In this document: positions 17,260-42,626 of the stretch, one piece after another
How positions within the stretch are numbered: position 1 is the stretch's first letter
Layout of the letters: every line of letters begins with the position of its first letter
From: Candidatus Shapirobacteria bacterium
GTDB taxonomy: Bacteria; Patescibacteriota; Microgenomatia; 0-14-0-10-38-17
Assembly: GCA_028695445.1 (NCBI GenBank)
Contig: JAQVIV010000001.1
Span: forward strand, 6,028-70,027
Reading direction: 5' to 3'
DNA: 64,000 nucleotides
Translations under genes and position numbers: made by a program
The notes under the pieces: generated by a model
Databases searched by the model: none
Told to the model about the DNA's origin: nothing
What the model saw: the letters and a program-made list of their open reading frames with translations, nothing else

Positions 17260-17329
17260 TGCGGGGTAGTGTACGGTGGCACGTGAGGCTCATAATCTCA
17301 CAGATCAGGTTCAACTCCTGACCCCGCAA
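17260..17329 (+). tRNA. tRNA with CAT anticodon (Met elongator or Ile2/lysidine type); no encoded CCA
   Basis: Hand-folded cloverleaf. Acceptor tgcgggg/ccccgca; D stem gtgt/gcac; anticodon stem tgagg/tctca; loop ctCATaa; T arm tcagg-ttcaact-cctga. A TATAAT -10 sits at 17242-17247. Confidence 0.55.
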
Positions 17330-17366
17330 CATTGGCCGTTAATTTTTAGCCATTGGTCGTTGGCAA
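17305..17366 (+). repeat. direct repeat copy 1 (tRNA 3' end plus ~35 nt downstream)
   Basis: 'ttcaactcctgaccccgcaacatt' plus 'gg/ccgtta..tttagcc.ttggtcgttgg' repeats at 17512-17567. Confidence 0.6.
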
Positions 17367-17511
17367 TTTGAAAAATAAATAATTAAAGACTGTTTGAGAT
17401 CTGGGGGGGTTGGGTGGTGAACCTGATAAAAGATTCCTCATTGATGATGCATCAACCGACAATCGTGGTGTTGTTACACCAACCAACAAAACAAGAAAAA
17501 GGCTGGTGTCA

Positions 17512-17567
17512 TCTTCAACTCCTGACCCCGCAACATTAGTCGTTAGTCTTTAGTCCTTGGTCGTTGG
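17512..17567 (+). repeat. direct repeat copy 2 (orphan tRNA 3'-end fragment + gtcgttag/ttggtcgttgg repeat); left arm of the inverted repeat flanking the 4HB gene
   Basis: 24/24 identity to the 3' end of tRNA 17260-17329. Reverse complement of 17537-17567 recurs at 17946-17979. Confidence 0.6.
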
Positions 17568-17594
17568 TTCCTGATACTTTTTCTCTTTCCGAAA

Positions 17595-17963
17595 ATGTAT
17601 AAATTCGAAAAATTAAGGGTTTGGCAATCGGCGATGGATTTGGTAGTTGAAGTTTACAAATTCACAAAACAGCTACCCAAAGAGGAAACTTATGGCCTAA
17701 GAGACCAAATAAGAAGAGCAAGCGTTTCTATTGCTTTAAACATTGCCGAAGGGACGGGAGATAAAAGCGACAAAGAATTAATAAGATATCTTTATTTATC
17801 TAAAAAGTCTCTTTTTGAAACAATAACCGGATTAAAGCTTACTCAAAGAATTTATCAACTAAAGCCAGAACAAATTTTAAAAAATTGCGATAACCTTGGT
17901 AGATCGCTTCAAGCTTTAATAAACTCTTTATCTAAAAGCCAAAAACTAAAGACTAACGACTAA
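17595..17963 (+). CDS. four-helix-bundle protein (TIGR02436-like, '23S rRNA intervening-sequence protein' family)
   Basis: 'KFEKLRVWQSAMDLVVEVYKFTKQLPKEE..GLRDQIRRASVSIALNIAEG' hallmark. Its C-terminal codons lie in the right inverted repeat. Confidence 0.7.
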   Translation: MYKFEKLRVWQSAMDLVVEVYKFTKQLPKEETYGLRDQIRRASVSIALNIAEGTGDKSDKELIRYLYLSKKSLFETITGLKLTQRIYQLKPEQILKNCDNLGRSLQALINSLSKSQKLKTND

Positions 17964-17979
17964 AGACCAAGGACTAACC
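17946..17979 (+). repeat. right arm of inverted repeat (gactaaagactaacgactaaagaccaaggactaac) bracketing the 4HB gene
   Basis: Shares 19-nt and 13-nt blocks with the reverse complement of 17537-17567, and directly abuts the second tRNA. Confidence 0.5.
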
Positions 17980-17980
17980 T

Positions 17981-18054
17981 GGCAGGGTAGCTCAGGTGGT
18001 TAGAGCAGGCGAATCATAACCGTCAGGTCGTCGGTTCAAATCCGACCCCTGCCA
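17981..18054 (+). tRNA. tRNA with CAT anticodon (D arm/anticodon stem 'gctcaggtggttagagcaggcga' resembles bacterial tRNA-Ile2 and elongator Met); no encoded CCA
   Basis: Acceptor ggcaggg/ccctgcc; D gctc/gagc; loop atCATaa; T arm gtcgg-ttcaaat-ccgac. Confidence 0.65.
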
Positions 18055-18166
18055 CTTTAGGCTATCAAAGAAATCGGGTTATTAAAGAAAAAAGTTATTT
18101 CTTCTTCCAGCCCGATCTCGTTTTTTAGCTTATAGGGATGGTGTGAACGATGTTCACACCATAGCC

Positions 18167-20261: not shown

Positions 20262-20412
20262 GGGGATATTATATTCTCAGGATATTATGTTCGCTACGCT
20301 CATACCAGCCCCATCAGGCTGGAAGAAAATCAGTTACGATTTTCTTTGATGGCCTGAGTGGGTCAGGGTAGATTCGAACCGCCAAAACCTCGATTTTACC
20401 TGCCCGCCGTAC

Positions 20413-20487
20413 TGGTGCGCCTGCTTGGATTCGAACCAAGGACATCTACTTTATAAGAGTAGCGCTCTACCATTGAGCTACAGGCGC
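20413..20487 (-). tRNA. tRNA with TAT anticodon (predicted tRNA-Ile decoding AUA), CCA encoded
   Basis: Reverse-complement cloverleaf. Acceptor gcgcctg/caggcgc; D gctc/gagc; anticodon stem ctact/agtag; loop ctTATaa; T arm cttgg-ttcgaat-ccaag; terminal CCA. Confidence 0.6.
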
Positions 20488-20554: not shown

Positions 20555-22897
20555 TCACAGCTTCGCCCGCCTGGCTACCTGGGCCTCTATTAGGGCCCTG
20601 TCTTGAGCATATTTGAGCCGAGATAACTCAGTAATATTTTTGGCCAATTCCCAATTATCAAGAGCCTTTTCTTTGGCCATATCTTTGGTCAAATCAAGAG
20701 AAAATGGCGGCACCGGCTCATTATTAACAATAGTTTTAACATAGGCATTAAATCTTTCGATATTTAAAAGGTCGTTTTCAGAAAAATCCGGTTGGAGCTC
20801 GTGTTGAAGATAAGAAGCATCGGCCACCCCTACTCGAAAAGAAACCAGAGTGCCGACATTGCCAAAAACAGCATTTTTAACCTCTTCGTCCATCTGGCCA
20901 ATAAATTGGTTGGCTACTGTCAGATTAAGGTGATACTTTCTAGCCTCAGATAAAATTTGGGCAAAATCGGGAGTAGCAAAATTCTGAAATTCATCAACAT
21001 AAAGATAAAAATCACGCCGGTTGTCTTCAGGAATATCCTGCCGACTCATGGCGGCAATTAACAATTTAGGAATTAATACCAAGCCCAAAAAGCTTGAATT
21101 TTCCTCACCGATTTTACCCTTAGCTAAATTAATCAACAAGATTTTACCCTCATCCATCACCTTTCTAAAATCAAAGGCTGATTGTGATTGGCCGATAATG
21201 TTGCGCATCATGCTGTCGGTAACAAAACGGCCAAATTTGGAAACAATATAATCTAAAACTTCACTCTTGTGAAAATCGCTAGTTTGGGCAATTTGATCAG
21301 TCCAATAGCGGCGAACCATCGGATCCTTAAGTTTGGGCAGTAATTCCCGAACATAAGAAGCGTCAGTCAGAGCACGAACCACCTCAACAAAAGTCGCTCC
21401 TGGCTCAGTCATCACCGTTAACATGGCATTTCTAATGGCATGTTCAAACCGAGGGCCAATAATACCAGTCTTATAAGGATCATAAAGCTTGTACATTAGG
21501 TTAATAATTGAAGAAACCACAAAGTTTTTTTGCTCCTCGGTGTAGGCCTCTAAAAGATTAAGGCCCATAGGGCGGCTGGTATCGGAAGGATCAAAATAAA
21601 TAACATCTTCTGCTCGTTCAGCCGGGATTCTCGGCAAAATCTTTTCGATAGTATCATGAGGATCAATAAAACAAACCCCCTTGCCTTCTTCGATGTCCTG
21701 AACGATCATTTGTTTTAATAACTCCGACTTACCGGTGCCGGTTTTACCAATAATATAAACATGGCGGCGGCGATCGTCTTCAGAAAGACAAACCGACCGG
21801 ATTTCGCCCCGATGAACGCTTTTCCCCAGATAAAGACCGCTTTTAGGTACTTCGGGCGGCACTGGAGCTCTTTTGGCATTAAGCCAAGCGATATTGGGTG
21901 TTTCCACCGTCTTATTGGGTAGATGAAAAATTGTTGCTAATTCTGCCGAATTAAGAATAATTCTATTTTTATTTAACGGCCAAAGCGGCCGATAGCGGTA
22001 AATAAAATCAATCATAAAGGTTCTTTTCCACCAAATTTTCTTACTGCTAAAACCGTTTTGATCAGAGCTAAACTGAGACAAGGCGCTTTTAATCGAAGAC
22101 AAATGAGCCTTGGCCTGCTCAATACTTTTCGAACAAACCACCACCCTTAACTCAACTTCAAAACCGGGCCTAGAACATTTTTCATCAATCTGCTCCAGGG
22201 TTTTACTATCAACTTTAAATTCGGCTTTTTCAGGATCAGCTTCCTTTTTCTTGGTCGATGATAAAAAAGACCGGCCCAGCTTTTGCCACTTGCTCCCGGT
22301 AGGGGCAATCAAAATTTGAATAGCAACCCCCTCCCCCTCAATAAGCTTGGATAGGGTTGAGGCTAAAGAAGAAAGAGGATCAACAGAAAAATCCTGATAG
22401 GTTTTAATGGGATAAAAGGGTGAATTTTTAAACTCAAAAACGGCATAGGCGACCTTACTGTCTTTGCTAAAAATATTGTATTCGTCTACCCTCTTAATCA
22501 CTGCCGTCGGGTAAAGACCATAAATCTGGCGCTCTAAAAGATCAACTTTTTTTTGAGGAATAGCAAAATAAAAGCGAATGCTGTCCTGAGTACCAACAAT
22601 TTCGGCGGTAAAAAAAAATTTAGGCTTTAAAAAGGCCAATTTGCCGCCAACTTTTAAGGAGTGTAGGTTGGTAAAGAGTTGTTCGGCGGCATCAATTTTA
22701 ATTTCATTGTCACGGGGCAAGATTACTTGCAGTAAAACCAAATCCAAGGAGTGTTGTTCCCGATTCCTTTCTCGCCAAAGCAAAAACAAGAAATAGATTA
22801 AAAATCCCAATAGAAACAAGAAAAAAACCGCCGCTCCTCCCAAGACAAAATAACGAATTAACAAATAAAATAAATCATTAAGGCTGTTAATAATCAT
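20555..22897 (-). CDS. membrane-anchored P-loop ATPase of the VirD4/TraD coupling-protein / HerA-FtsK (DUF87-like) type
   Basis: N-terminal TM segment. Walker A 'IIGKTGTGKSELL', Walker B 'FYLYVDEFQNF', and 'ARKYHLNLTVANQ' arginine-finger region typical of T4SS coupling ATPases. Confidence 0.5.
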   Translation of the reverse strand: MIINSLNDLFYLLIRYFVLGGAAVFFLFLLGFLIYFLFLLWRERNREQHSLDLVLLQVILPRDNEIKIDAAEQLFTNLHSLKVGGKLAFLKPKFFFTAEIVGTQDSIRFYFAIPQKKVDLLERQIYGLYPTAVIKRVDEYNIFSKDSKVAYAVFEFKNSPFYPIKTYQDFSVDPLSSLASTLSKLIEGEGVAIQILIAPTGSKWQKLGRSFLSSTKKKEADPEKAEFKVDSKTLEQIDEKCSRPGFEVELRVVVCSKSIEQAKAHLSSIKSALSQFSSDQNGFSSKKIWWKRTFMIDFIYRYRPLWPLNKNRIILNSAELATIFHLPNKTVETPNIAWLNAKRAPVPPEVPKSGLYLGKSVHRGEIRSVCLSEDDRRRHVYIIGKTGTGKSELLKQMIVQDIEEGKGVCFIDPHDTIEKILPRIPAERAEDVIYFDPSDTSRPMGLNLLEAYTEEQKNFVVSSIINLMYKLYDPYKTGIIGPRFEHAIRNAMLTVMTEPGATFVEVVRALTDASYVRELLPKLKDPMVRRYWTDQIAQTSDFHKSEVLDYIVSKFGRFVTDSMMRNIIGQSQSAFDFRKVMDEGKILLINLAKGKIGEENSSFLGLVLIPKLLIAAMSRQDIPEDNRRDFYLYVDEFQNFATPDFAQILSEARKYHLNLTVANQFIGQMDEEVKNAVFGNVGTLVSFRVGVADASYLQHELQPDFSENDLLNIERFNAYVKTIVNNEPVPPFSLDLTKDMAKEKALDNWELAKNITELSRLKYAQDRALIEAQVARRAKL

Positions 22898-24085: not shown

Positions 24086-24235
24086 TTATTTTCCGCTGTA
24101 CTCTTTCCTCATCTGATACTCGGACGCTTTGCCTTCGTTCCATTGGCTAACCGGACGCAAATAACCAACAATCCGGGAATAAACCTCGCAGGGGGTGCGA
24201 TCTTTTGGAGTTGCCTTGTTTTTCTTTTTAACCAT
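24086..24235 (-). CDS. 49-aa ORF encoding the NrdD C-terminal glycyl-radical domain (MVKKKNKATPKDRTPCEVYSRIVGYLRPVSQWNEGKASEYQMRKEYSGK)
   Basis: Hand-translated; not in the ORF track (<60 aa). 'RIVGYL...WN.GK..E...R' matches the class III RNR glycyl-radical loop (E. coli 'RVCGYLG..WNKGK'). SD 'GGAGG' 7 nt upstream of the ATG. Lies between truncated nrdD and nrdG. Confidence 0.55.
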   Translation of the reverse strand: MVKKKNKATPKDRTPCEVYSRIVGYLRPVSQWNEGKASEYQMRKEYSGK

Positions 24236-24484: not shown

Positions 24485-26545
24485 CTACTTCTCCTTATAC
24501 CCTATTTCTTCGTCGCACCTAGGACAAAATTGCCACTCGCCTGACAAATAACCATGCTTTGGACAAACAGAAAAGGTTGGGGTAATGGAAAAATAAGGCA
24601 GTTTATAATTGGCTGTTACTTTTTGGAGCAGATTTTTAACGCTTTCGGTATCAGGCAAACTTTCCCCTAAAAAGCCATGGATGACAGTGCCACCCGTATA
24701 CTTACATTGTAATTCATCCTGATGATCCAGGGCCTCAAAAAGGTCGGTGGTGTAATCGACCGGCAAATGAGTCGAGTTGGTATAAAAAGGCGCTTCTTTC
24801 TTTTCTTGGTAATTTTTTTCATTAGCACAAATAATTTTGGGAAATTGCTCTTTATCCAGCCTGGCGAAACGATAGGCGGTGCTTTCCGCCGGTGTGGCTT
24901 CAAGATTAAACATTTCCCCAGTTTCTTGCTGGTAAATTAAAATTTTTTCCCGCATATAATCCATTACCTCTAAAGCAAAAGCTTGCCCTTCGGGGTCGGC
25001 AATATTTTTCCCCATCAAGTTAACCAAGGCCTCATTCATACCGTTTAAGCCAATGGTGTTAAAGTGGTTGCGCCAGTAAACTTTATTGCGCTGATAAATA
25101 TCAGATAAATAATGGCGGCAGTAGGGGTACAGGCCGTCGTGGGTAAATTTTTCCACCGCCTCTCTTTTAATTATCAGCGAATCTTTGGCCAAATCCATTA
25201 GACGGCCAAGGAGAGTAAAGAATTTTCTTTTGGCAAATCCCTCGGTTTTAGAGCTTGCTTTGGCCAAATAACCAATTCGAGGCAAGTTGATGGTAACCAC
25301 CCCCAAGGAACCGGTTAGGGGATTGGCAGCAAACAACCCGCCTCGCCGCCTTAATTCCCGATTATCTAAGCGCAAACGACAACACATACTTCGAGCATCG
25401 TCAGGATCCATATCAGAATTAACAAAATTAGAAAAATAGGGAATACCATATTTTCTGGTCATTTCCCAAACCGGCTCCAAATTTTTATTATTCCAATCGA
25501 AGTCCTTGGTAATTGAATAGGTTGGAATTGGGAAGGTAAAGACTCGCCCTTGAGCATCGCCCTCCATCATGGTTTCGGCAAAAGCTCGATTAATCATATC
25601 CATTTCTTTTTGAAAATCTTCATACTTATCTTGGGTTGGCTGGCCGGCAATAACAACCGTTTCCTCGCCGACCATTTTGGTAGGATGAATATCCAAAGAA
25701 ATATTGGAAAAGGGGGTTTGGAAGCCCACTCTGGTAGGAACATTCATATTAAAAACAAACTCTTGAAGAGCCTGTTTAACCTGTTTATAGGTTAGGTTGT
25801 CATAACGAACAAAAGGAGCCAAATAGGTATCAAAATTGGAGACTGCTACTGCTCCAGCCACCTCGCCTTGAATGGTATACATAAAATTAACAATCTGCCC
25901 TAGAGCCGAAGAAAGGTGCCTTGGAGGAGCACTGTTAACCTTGCCGGAAACGCCGCCAAATCCCTTAATTAAAAAGTCTTTTAAGTCCCAGCCGGTACAA
26001 TAGGCCGAAAGGGAAGACAAATCATGAATGTGAAGATCGCCTTGGCGATGAGCCTTTCTTACCTCTCGAGAATAAATTTTATTAAGCCAAAAATTGGCCG
26101 AAATTATACTGGCCACATGATTATTCAAGCCCTGTAAAGAATAGGTCATGTTGGCATTCTCCTTTACTCGCCAGTCGCCCTGATTAAGATATTTTTCTGT
26201 TAACTCATCGGCATCGACCAAACTGCTAACGCTTCTTAATTTTTGGTGAAGCTGACGATAAAGGGTGTAGGCGCTATGGACTTCTTCGTGAGCACGCCTT
26301 AATAGAGTCTGCTCAACAATATCTTGAACCTGTTCTACCTCGGGAGTAATGGAAGAATTAAACCGCTTCTCAAGTTCTAAAACCACCTCTTTGGTTAGGC
26401 GGCGAACCTCTTGAACATCATCTTTACCGGCAGCCTTAAAAGCGGCCTTAATCGCCCTTCCAATCTTATTAGGACTAAAGGCCACTATCCGGCCATTTCT
26501 TTTTTTGATCCTGGTAATTTTTGATTTTATTCCTCCTCTAACCAT
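24485..26545 (-). CDS. nrdD: anaerobic ribonucleoside-triphosphate reductase large subunit (class III RNR), ending right after the Zn ribbon
   Basis: N-terminal ATP-cone ('KITRIKKRNGRIVAFSPNKIGRAIKAA'), conserved class III core, C-terminal 'CPKH...CPRC' Zn site; stops 9 residues later, before the 'RxxGY' glycyl-radical loop. Confidence 0.85.
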   Translation of the reverse strand: MVRGGIKSKITRIKKRNGRIVAFSPNKIGRAIKAAFKAAGKDDVQEVRRLTKEVVLELEKRFNSSITPEVEQVQDIVEQTLLRRAHEEVHSAYTLYRQLHQKLRSVSSLVDADELTEKYLNQGDWRVKENANMTYSLQGLNNHVASIISANFWLNKIYSREVRKAHRQGDLHIHDLSSLSAYCTGWDLKDFLIKGFGGVSGKVNSAPPRHLSSALGQIVNFMYTIQGEVAGAVAVSNFDTYLAPFVRYDNLTYKQVKQALQEFVFNMNVPTRVGFQTPFSNISLDIHPTKMVGEETVVIAGQPTQDKYEDFQKEMDMINRAFAETMMEGDAQGRVFTFPIPTYSITKDFDWNNKNLEPVWEMTRKYGIPYFSNFVNSDMDPDDARSMCCRLRLDNRELRRRGGLFAANPLTGSLGVVTINLPRIGYLAKASSKTEGFAKRKFFTLLGRLMDLAKDSLIIKREAVEKFTHDGLYPYCRHYLSDIYQRNKVYWRNHFNTIGLNGMNEALVNLMGKNIADPEGQAFALEVMDYMREKILIYQQETGEMFNLEATPAESTAYRFARLDKEQFPKIICANEKNYQEKKEAPFYTNSTHLPVDYTTDLFEALDHQDELQCKYTGGTVIHGFLGESLPDTESVKNLLQKVTANYKLPYFSITPTFSVCPKHGYLSGEWQFCPRCDEEIGYKEK

Positions 26546-41573: not shown

Positions 41574-42626
41574 ATGATTATCCTTGGTATCGAAACCTCT
41601 TGCGATGAAACCTCGGTGGCTATCGTTGAGAATGGCCGCCGGGTGCTATCGGTAGCCACGGCTTCATCAGAGGAACTGCACCAAAAAACCGGTGGTATTG
41701 TCCCGGAATCGGCCGCTCGAGAACAACTCTCCTGTATGATTCCGGTTCTAGAAGAAACTCTAATCCAATTCCAACCTAAAATAAAACCGCAAAAAGCTTT
41801 GGAAAAAATTGATGCTTTGGCAGTCACTTATGGGCCCGGATTAATCGGCTCGTTATTAGTCGGAATCGAAACCGCCAAAGCCCTAAGCTTGGTTACCGGT
41901 AAACCATTAGTGCCGGTTAATCACCTAGAAGCCCATATTTTTGGCAATTGGCTGGAGAAAAGACCTGATCAATTTCCGAATCTGCCAGGCTTGGCCTTAA
42001 TCGCCTCCGGCGGTCACACCGAACTGATTTTAGTCAATAAAAAGGATAAAAAATACCAGTTTACCTTCCTTGGCGGCACCAGAGACGACGCCTCAGGCGA
42101 ATGTTTTGATAAGTGTGCCCGTGTTTTGGGCTTGGACTATCCGGGAGGGCCGGCCATCGCCCAAAGCGCTCAAGGGGCTCCGGAAAAACTGATTGGTAAT
42201 CCTCCCCTTAGTCTGCCTCGGCCAATGGTTGATCAAAAAAATCTTGACTTTTCTTTTTCCGGATTAAAAACGGCCGTTATTAACCAGGTCCGGAAACTTA
42301 GAGAAGAGGGCTTTTTAAACGAGGAGACGAAAAACTTTTTTGCTTGGGAAATTCAAGAGGCCATTACCGACTGTTTGGTCAAAAAAACTATTCAGGCGGC
42401 GAAAAAATACCCGGTTGGGTCACTGCTCTTGGGCGGTGGGGTAACCGCTAATCAAGTATTGCGAGAAAAGCTTCAGGAAGAAGCCAATAAATTAAATTTT
42501 AATCTTTTTATCCCCGGAATTCGTTATTGCACCGATAATGCCACCATTGTTGCCGCCGCCGCTTATTTTAACTACCAACCCATCCCCTGGTCAAAAATTA
42601 CCCCCCAGCCAAGTCTTTCATTTTAA
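41574..42626 (+). CDS. tsaD: tRNA N6-adenosine threonylcarbamoyltransferase
   Basis: 'ILGIETSCDETSVAIV', 'HLEAHI', Kae1/TsaD family. Confidence 0.85.
   Translation: MIILGIETSCDETSVAIVENGRRVLSVATASSEELHQKTGGIVPESAAREQLSCMIPVLEETLIQFQPKIKPQKALEKIDALAVTYGPGLIGSLLVGIETAKALSLVTGKPLVPVNHLEAHIFGNWLEKRPDQFPNLPGLALIASGGHTELILVNKKDKKYQFTFLGGTRDDASGECFDKCARVLGLDYPGGPAIAQSAQGAPEKLIGNPPLSLPRPMVDQKNLDFSFSGLKTAVINQVRKLREEGFLNEETKNFFAWEIQEAITDCLVKKTIQAAKKYPVGSLLLGGGVTANQVLREKLQEEANKLNFNLFIPGIRYCTDNATIVAAAAYFNYQPIPWSKITPQPSLSF

Follow-up and report, generated by a model that had tools for sequence, protein, structure and literature searches.

A putative Ile2-type tRNA-Ile(UAU), probably reading AUA, at a conserved chromosomal locus of Candidatus Shapirobacteria and related CPR bacteria

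The window analyzed here, a stretch of 64,000 nucleotides, belongs to the chromosome of a Candidatus Shapirobacteria bacterium (CPR) and not to a phage. The best homologues of its proteins were found in Shapirobacteria, Microgenomates, Gottesmanbacteria and MAGs designated 'Patescibacteria group'. It contains housekeeping genes typical of CPR bacteria (ftsH, a stand-alone 5'-3' exonuclease gene, nrdDG, groEL, valS, tgt, tsaD, yidC-rnpA-rpmH and genes for DUF4012, DUF2298 and a four-helix-bundle '23S rRNA IVP' protein) and, in addition, xth. The G+C content is uniform at about 41%. A megablast search with the region between 15 and 24 kb against a phage collection gave no match, thus the region is not a known phage. 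Locally, the genes are arranged in the order VirD4-like ATPase, tRNA(UAU), XerD-like recombinase, DivIC, tRNA-fMet/tRNA-Met and ftsH. The features on which the analysis is based are:

20413..20487, minus strand: tRNA-Ile(UAU) with encoded CCA, presumed AUA decoder (ARAGORN, Rfam, minimum-free-energy fold, 43-sequence alignment, log-odds of +43 bits)
17260..17330, plus strand: initiator-type tRNA(CAU), homologue of tRNA-fMet, without encoded CCA (ARAGORN; Rfam, 52.3 bits)
17981..18055, plus strand: elongator Met-type tRNA(CAU), without encoded CCA (ARAGORN; Rfam, 59.9 bits)
41574..42626, plus strand: TsaD (t6A37 synthesis), an inferred accessory (Pfam PF00814, 2.7e-75)

Directly upstream of the UAU tRNA gene lies an ORF (20555-22897, minus strand) for a DUF8128/DUF87/TraD-like ATPase of 780 amino acids, named at NCBI a type IV secretion system DNA-binding (VirD4-like coupling) protein. 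Thousands of CPR contigs encode this ATPase with an identity of 40-100%, which makes it a handy synteny anchor, and it probably belongs to the type IV secretion system of Patescibacteria described in PMC12102498. Farther away, nrdD (24485-26545) encodes a protein of 686 amino acids and is followed downstream, at about 24086-24235 on the minus strand, by a separate ORF of 49 amino acids with a match to NRDD (PF13597). The split recurs in relatives, with an ORF of 46 amino acids in loci L336 and L337, and suggests that the C-terminal glycyl-radical segment has become a gene of its own or that a conserved frameshift or recoding takes place.

In the first-pass annotation of this DNA, a minus-strand cloverleaf with the anticodon loop ctTATaa and an encoded CCA had been described, and this description was borne out by ARAGORN, Rfam and the minimum-free-energy structure. 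Within the window, ARAGORN called tRNA-Ile(tat) at 20413-20487 on the minus strand, confirming both the anticodon and the folded region. The Rfam model RF00005 matched positions 20416-20487 of the same strand over its full length (77.6 bits, E=2.5e-15) with zero non-canonical pairs; all three tRNAs of the window lie above its gathering score of 29. The structure of minimum free energy is the cloverleaf. Read from the 5' end, it is composed of the acceptor strand GCGCCUG, the linker UA, the D arm GCUC AAUGGUA GAGC, a single G, the anticodon arm CUACU CUUAUAA AGUAG, the variable region AUGUC, the T arm CUUGG UUCGAAU CCAAG, the acceptor strand CAGGCGC, the discriminator A73 and CCA, the latter being part of the gene. 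Stems of 7, 4, 5 and 5 bp, U8, A14, G18-G19 and a GTTCRA T loop are present as in a regular tRNA, and UAU is encoded in a 7-nt loop (CUUAUAA) together with U33 and A37, as is to be expected of an AUA decoder. Three independent Logan/ENA assemblies contain the same 75-nt gene as the NCBI MAG contig, an assembly artefact is therefore excluded. A scan of the flanks for promoters and terminators revealed no signal beyond chance. Just 3' of the gene, at about 20350-20405 on the minus strand, a stem GGGCAGGUA...UACCCUGACCC encloses GGCGGUUCGAAUC and has the look of a 'minihelix' made up of acceptor and T arm, or of what is left of a second tRNA. This element was not called by Rfam and is missing in a relative of 85% identity (L335); it may have been left as a scar by a lost tRNA, or it may be an attachment site.

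To 43 distinct homologues of the UAU tRNA, C32-U33-U34-A35-U36-A37 and A73 are common without exception. In their alignment, 99.6% of the stem cells are paired and compensatory (double) changes occur at 20 of the 21 pairs. The covariation score amounts to 0.80 compared to 0.19 in shuffles (0 of 500 reached the observed value), and slid controls were paired to 37-43%. The invariant anticodon and the covariation of the stems thus indicate a functional tRNA which is kept by selection with UAU.

The distribution of the gene was followed in two sets of data. A scan of GTDB species genomes allowed Y at position 34, and among the 120 matches listed 116 were CAU tRNAs. The four TAT tRNAs among these matches are all of CPR type and belong to Candidatus Jorgensenbacteria, to two 'Patescibacteria group' MAGs and to one contig labelled Bathyarchaeia. 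The latter (L033; DATKWK010000039.1, labelled Candidatus Bathyarchaeia archaeon; 99.6 kb) harbors a CPR ATPase that is 66% identical, the tRNA(UAU) and a XerD-like gene in the order of the window. Since its tRNA is identical at 66 of 72 positions and syntenic with that of the window, the contig really is a CPR contig, most likely one that was mis-binned into an archaeal MAG. The second set consists of 80 metagenome loci with 40-76% ATPase identity, fetched with an alignment of three ATPases (those of the window, L033 and L041). A tRNA(tat) gene within 5 kb downstream of the ATPase was detected in 40 of the 80 loci, and in 24 of the 30 loci in which the ATPase identity is 54% or higher and the downstream sequence 2.5 kb or longer. 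Its position is kept in loci with as little as 44% ATPase identity. Usually, one or two tRNA(cat) genes follow about 2 kb beyond the tRNA(UAU), several loci include ftsH, and L041 shares with L033 the order ATPase, tRNA(UAU), XerD-like recombinase. The longer order of the window, continuing with DivIC, tRNA-fMet/Met and ftsH, recurs in L033, in L041 and in relatives from metagenomes. By its position in this syntenic context, the UAU tRNA gene is to be regarded as chromosomal and vertically inherited. The assertion of the first-pass annotation that tRNA-Ile(UAU) occurs in a few reduced genomes only could not be upheld, as the gene is syntenic across Microgenomates, present in Parcubacteria and very common in phage contigs.

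In the relative L335 (85% ATPase identity), the same tRNA with CCA is followed by an 8.8-kb insertion. This block of about 8.8 kb (12552-20990 of L335) encodes a beta-lactamase-fold protein, a protein of 1074 amino acids and a dockerin-like protein; it separates the UAU tRNA from xth and has no counterpart in the window. Immediately 3' of the tRNA there appears to be a hot spot for insertions.

In E. coli, the isoleucine identity set comprises A73, C4:G69, U12:A23, C29:G41, A37 and A38, and TilS recognises tRNA-Ile2 via the acceptor pairs C4:G69 and C5:G68. The UAU tRNA carries A73, C4:G69, C5:G68, U12:A23, A37 and A38. Hence, five of the six identity elements are present, while C29:G41 is replaced by A29:U41. 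Within the clade, C29:G41 was counted in 2, C4:G69 in 27 and U12:A23 in 37 of the 43 homologues. For comparison, about 100 CAU tRNAs of diverse bacteria were used as references, 41 of Ile2 type and 60 of Met type. Ile2-type references have a GGGCC acceptor and mostly C29:G41 (35 of 41), Met-type references mostly G29:C41 (52 of 60). The isotype test was a position-specific log-odds of Ile2 type versus Met type, the labels being assigned in-house by an acceptor-stem rule. With these self-assigned labels, the UAU tRNA reached +43.3 bits, which lies in the leave-one-out range of the Ile2 type (28-102), and still +19.3 bits when the acceptor columns were left out. On the same scale the genuine tRNA-Ile2 of E. 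coli has a weak score of +9.1, which drops to -5.7 once the acceptor stem is omitted. By identities taken from the multiple alignment, 43 of 44 UAU tRNAs of the clade are nearer to Ile2-type than to Met-type references, and the consensus acceptor of the clade, GGGCCnG, is the classical Ile2 acceptor. By these comparisons, body and acceptor stem of the UAU tRNA are probably of the Ile2 type. The antisense strand of the gene matched the Rfam family Plastid-ycf2 5'UTR with 36.1 bits (E=4e-5), below the gathering score of 65.7; this element lies antisense to plastid trnI-CAU. A BLAST comparison with E. coli, whose top match was a tRNA-Arg (74%, E=0.2), was non-significant and was discarded as uninformative.

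The codon AUA, whose usage the first-pass annotation had proposed to check, is indeed in use. It occurs 139 times (7.25 per 1000, 10% of the Ile codons) in 46 of the 50 ORFs and aligns with I, V and L. Five AUA sites of FtsH align with I/V in 12 homologues. At 12 AUA sites of five proteins with orthologues, the frequencies were 0.41 for I, 0.19 for V, 0.12 for L and 0.11 for M in a small sample (12-17 sites); AUU sites were alike, and at AUG sites M reached 0.60. These values fit a reading of AUA as isoleucine.

The two tRNAs with CAT anticodon had been reported to lack an encoded CCA, which proved to be correct, as the discriminator A is followed by CAT in the tRNA at 17260 and by CTT in the tRNA at 17981. 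The acceptor of the former (UGCGGGG...CCCCGCA-A) matches that of initiators (CGCGGGG...CCCCGCAA) in L014, L048 and L098 except for U1, by which a U1-A72 pair takes the place of the C1xA72 mismatch. The anticodon stem of this tRNA consists of A29:U41, G30:C40 and G31.U39 and does not contain GGG:CCC (three G:C pairs, 29-31:39-41). The D arm is unusual (GUGU/GCAC) and the T loop reads UUCAACU. Orthologues occur in L041, L272, L277, L288, L290 and L317. In relatives, orthologues possess C1 or U1 and adjoin tRNA-Met. An initiator tRNA next to an elongator tRNA-Met is a frequent arrangement in unrelated bacteria too. The tRNA at 17260 is read as an initiator homologue, though an atypical one, and its oddities may matter for formylation and for proofreading by IF3 in the lineage.

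One of the CAT tRNAs had also been suspected to resemble tRNA-Ile2 in its D arm and anticodon stem. This is true of the tRNA at 17981, whose best E. coli matches are tRNA-Ile genes annotated by PGAP with the anticodon CAU (86-89% identity, positions 8-66), but the likeness is limited to those arms, since acceptor stem, nearest neighbors and orthologues are Met-type. Its D arm and its anticodon stem, GGCGA, are those of E. coli tRNA-Ile2, and C29:G41 and U12:A23 are present. By contrast, A4:U69 and G5:C68 are found where the TilS handle, C4:G69 and C5:G68, would be located. The log-odds of -50.6 bits falls within the Met leave-one-out range (-103 to -12), whereas the anticodon arm alone leans towards Ile2 (+8.1). 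Its nearest references are Met-type (0.78-0.81 identity, compared to 0.73 for E. coli Ile2), and the 17 clade orthologues, whose anticodon stems vary and whose loops read UUCAUAA, are all nearer to the Met type. We conclude from these characters that the tRNA at 17981 is to be classified as an elongator tRNA-Met; because of the arms shared with E. coli tRNA-Ile2, there is a residual possibility that it serves as a TilS substrate. An Ile2-type CAU tRNA was found neither in the window nor in the 80 loci of relatives.

Some peculiarities were noticed between the two CAU tRNAs. The sequence 17305-17363, which comprises the 3'-terminal 26 nt of the initiator tRNA and the next approximately 30 nt, is repeated directly at 17509-17567, i.e. 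204 nt downstream (59 nt, 86% identical). An ORF for a four-helix-bundle '23S rRNA intervening sequence' protein (IVP; 17595-17963) is located between inverted repeats of 45 nt (17525-17569 and 17944-17988), the right arm of which abuts the tRNA-Met. In relatives possessing both genes, the tRNAs for fMet and Met are usually about 30-150 nt apart, in a few loci more widely. Judging from this spacing, the IVP gene looks like a small insertion between the two tRNAs, and the element may have inserted twice, duplicating the 3' end of the initiator tRNA.

Telling AUA from AUG is a classic difficulty of the genetic code, for which lysidine, introduced by TilS, is the textbook solution of bacteria. 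TilS is an essential enzyme that has been considered as an antibacterial target and as a phylogenetic marker. Neither tilS nor ileS was found in 84 kb of the contig (the window and about 10 kb beyond each end, corresponding to about 10% of the genome). With E. coli TilS as the probe, phmmer (E<=10) detected no homologue in about 0.95 Mb, made up of the 84 kb and related CPR loci. As a control, the same probe was applied to 0.84 Mb of non-CPR loci, where it picked up eight tilS genes (E 1e-19 to 1e-25), often in the arrangement tRNA-Met, tilS, ftsH. A search of CPR loci for the PP-loop motif SGGxDS yielded NadE, GuaA and an unrelated serine hydroxymethyltransferase and no TilS, and a profile search of a 5.8-billion-protein database with 7 TilS sequences returned solely Chloroflexota-like TilS among the matches listed. 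IleRS was found neither in the window nor in the loci of relatives; the window encodes ValRS as its sole large enzyme of class I. From these searches we infer with about even confidence, or slightly better, that tilS was lost in the lineage. An argument for the loss of tilS from the position before ftsH was not upheld. Both arrangements, tRNA-Met-tilS-ftsH and tRNA-Met-ftsH, occur in non-CPR bacteria, and a missing tilS at this position therefore says little. In Chloroflexota-type loci (L025, L047, L091, L105, also L035, L064, L118), an elongator tRNA-Met is situated directly upstream of tilS, which is followed by ftsH, a widespread linkage. Among the TilS proteins of such loci, there are fusions to Hpt as well as short forms (about 280-330 amino acids, PF01171 only).

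Taken together, the overall explanation that we consider probable is a functional, vertically inherited chromosomal tRNA-Ile(UAU), derived from Ile2 and reading AUA. An AUA-decoding tRNA-Ile(UAU), as put forward in the first-pass annotation, is supported by the invariant anticodon and the covariation in 43 homologues, by the probably Ile2-type body and acceptor, by the use of AUA as Ile and by the host, a CPR bacterium with a reduced genome. According to this model, the body would have arisen from the tRNA-Ile2(CAU) type by a change of C34 to U in an ancestor of the CPR lineage. The tRNA would be charged by IleRS and would read AUA by direct U34-A pairing. Together with the initiator tRNA and the elongator tRNA-Met, it would complete the set of AUR decoders. 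Candidates for the means by which misreading of AUG is avoided are an unmodified or pseudouridylated U34 and discrimination by the ribosome. As a general rule, tRNAs reading ANN codons are expected to carry t6A37. The invariant A37 beside U36 would be the expected site, so that A37 of the UAU tRNA is probably t6A. In keeping with this rule, a link to TsaD is conceivable; a Sua5/TsaC gene is located on the same contig, just beyond the window.

Whether the UAU tRNA acts alone is a separate question. We lean slightly towards its being the only AUA decoder, replacing the lysidine system of TilS and tRNA-Ile2(CAU). A redundant stage, in which TilS and a lysidine-containing tRNA-Ile2(CAU) are retained (encoded elsewhere or represented by the tRNA at 17981) and the UAU tRNA is a parallel AUA decoder, is considered less probable though a serious candidate. 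The readable DNA covers about 84 kb of the genome, some bacteria have both LAU and UAU tRNAs (PMC3575796), and tilS exists in nearly all bacterial genomes (PMC11947777). The tRNA at 17981 would be the obvious substrate, given its 86-89% identity to E. coli tRNA-Ile2 over positions 8-66 with C29:G41 and U12:A23. However, it has neither C4:G69 nor C5:G68, it is Met-type in its acceptor, variable and T regions and in its neighbors, and its 17 clade orthologues, with varied anticodon stems, keep UUCAUAA loops. Moreover, the clade loci yielded zero Ile2-type tRNAs and zero tilS genes, and the UAU tRNA, being retained almost universally and with an unchanged anticodon throughout a deep clade, is arguably indispensable.

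It is very improbable that the gene is a recently acquired tRNA of a phage or mobile element and not a core gene. Such an origin could be suspected from at least 120 matches of tRNA(UAU) with the same D arm on IMG/VR viral contigs, from the tyrosine recombinase and the VirD4-like ATPase nearby and from the tRNA-like acceptor/T-arm remnant after the gene. On the other hand, the best viral match among those listed agrees at 57 of 72 positions, compared to 66 of 72 for the syntenic CPR relative, phage genomes gave no megablast match, and the G+C content is uniform. The gene is flanked by xth, nrdDG and ftsH, all of them housekeeping genes, and its site is kept down to 44% ATPase identity; a phage or island context was not observed, and relatives carry the tRNA at the syntenic site. 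Least probable of all is that the tRNA is not specific for Ile, i.e. that it accepts another amino acid or that AUA has been reassigned (for instance to Met, as in mitochondria). The identity of the tRNA is deduced from sequence only and C29:G41 is missing, but MetRS is known to depend on C34, A73 and the acceptor stem are Ile2-like, and the residues aligned with AUA sites (I 0.41, V 0.19, L 0.12, M 0.11) resemble those of AUU and not those of AUG (M 0.60). The preferred explanation remains a tRNA-Ile(UAU) that probably reads AUA.

At a still larger scale, it is an evenly balanced proposition that a large part of the CPR (Microgenomates, e.g. Shapirobacteria and Gottesmanbacteria, and at least some Parcubacteria, e.g. 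Jorgensenbacteria) abandoned TilS and lysidine and decodes AUA by an Ile2-derived tRNA-Ile(UAU). If this is true, UAU-based AUA decoding would be a major bacterial strategy and not the 'rare case' of reviews, and IleRS and/or the ribosome would have to be adapted throughout the lineage so as to keep U34 off AUG. The syntenic UAU tRNA of a deep clade points to a far wider natural use of an alternative to lysidine and offers dozens of natural variants for studying how U34 is handled by IleRS and the ribosome. In practice, marker sets based on TilS and completeness checks for a 'missing tRNA-Ile2' may mislead for CPR genomes. For the annotation of the locus, probable identities can be given to its three AUR tRNAs.

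In the literature searched, no paper linked lysidine or tilS with CPR or Patescibacteria. Bacterial tRNAs with the anticodon TAT have been listed for 19 species in tRNADB-CE (PMC4013482) and for 17 genomes by tRNAscan-SE 2.0 (PMC8450103), the UAU tRNA being treated as rare in papers from 2021 to 2026, and papers of 2025-2026 regard it as rare and tilS as nearly universal (PMC11947777; bioRxiv 10.64898/2026.02.03.703510). Compared with the canonical tRNA-Ile2(CAU), the UAU tRNA reads the same codon, AUA, and has in common C4:G69, C5:G68, U12:A23, A73, the loop C32-U33-N-A35-U36-A37-A38 and, in the clade consensus, the GGGCCnG acceptor. What separates them is C29:G41, which is not kept, and T34 in the gene, by which lysidine is neither needed nor possible. 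The tRNA-Ile(UAU) genes of phages (IMG/VR) possess the same anticodon and D arm with an identity of at most 57/72 among the matches listed, while the gene described here occupies a conserved chromosomal locus. In the archaea Nanoarchaeum equitans and Korarchaeum cryptofilum, a UAU tRNA likewise replaces the C34-modification system in ultra-small or reduced lineages (PMC8450103), but they belong to another domain and the system replaced there is TiaS/agmatidine. Among bacteria, Bifidobacterium and Neorickettsia lack tilS and have a tRNA-Ile(UAU) along with a eukaryote-type IleRS (PMC3575796, PMC8450103). The putative CPR system is similar to theirs as to the UAU tRNA in place of tRNA-Ile2(CAU), the eukaryote-type IleRS being a feature of those genera. 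The IleRS adaptation expected of a system with U34 is either an Arg at the position of E. coli W905 (R865 in Mycoplasma mobile) or a eukaryote-type IleRS. The closest parallel is M. mobile, for which Taniguchi et al. (2013, PMC3575796) showed by experiment a tRNA-Ile2(UAU) with an unmodified U34, an IleRS with Arg865, a ribosome that avoids AUG and the absence of tilS. Both systems feature an encoded UAU, A37 (in the CPR tRNA probably t6A) and a reduced genome, the body of the CPR tRNA is putatively Ile2-derived like that of M. mobile, and in both the proposed origin is a duplication/mutation of a CAT gene, C34 being changed to T. The mechanism is therefore already known; new are the host lineage and the breadth, i.e. 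a syntenic tRNA with an invariant anticodon in Microgenomates and some Parcubacteria. Unlike the gene of M. mobile, the one described here is kept not in one species but across a whole deep lineage.
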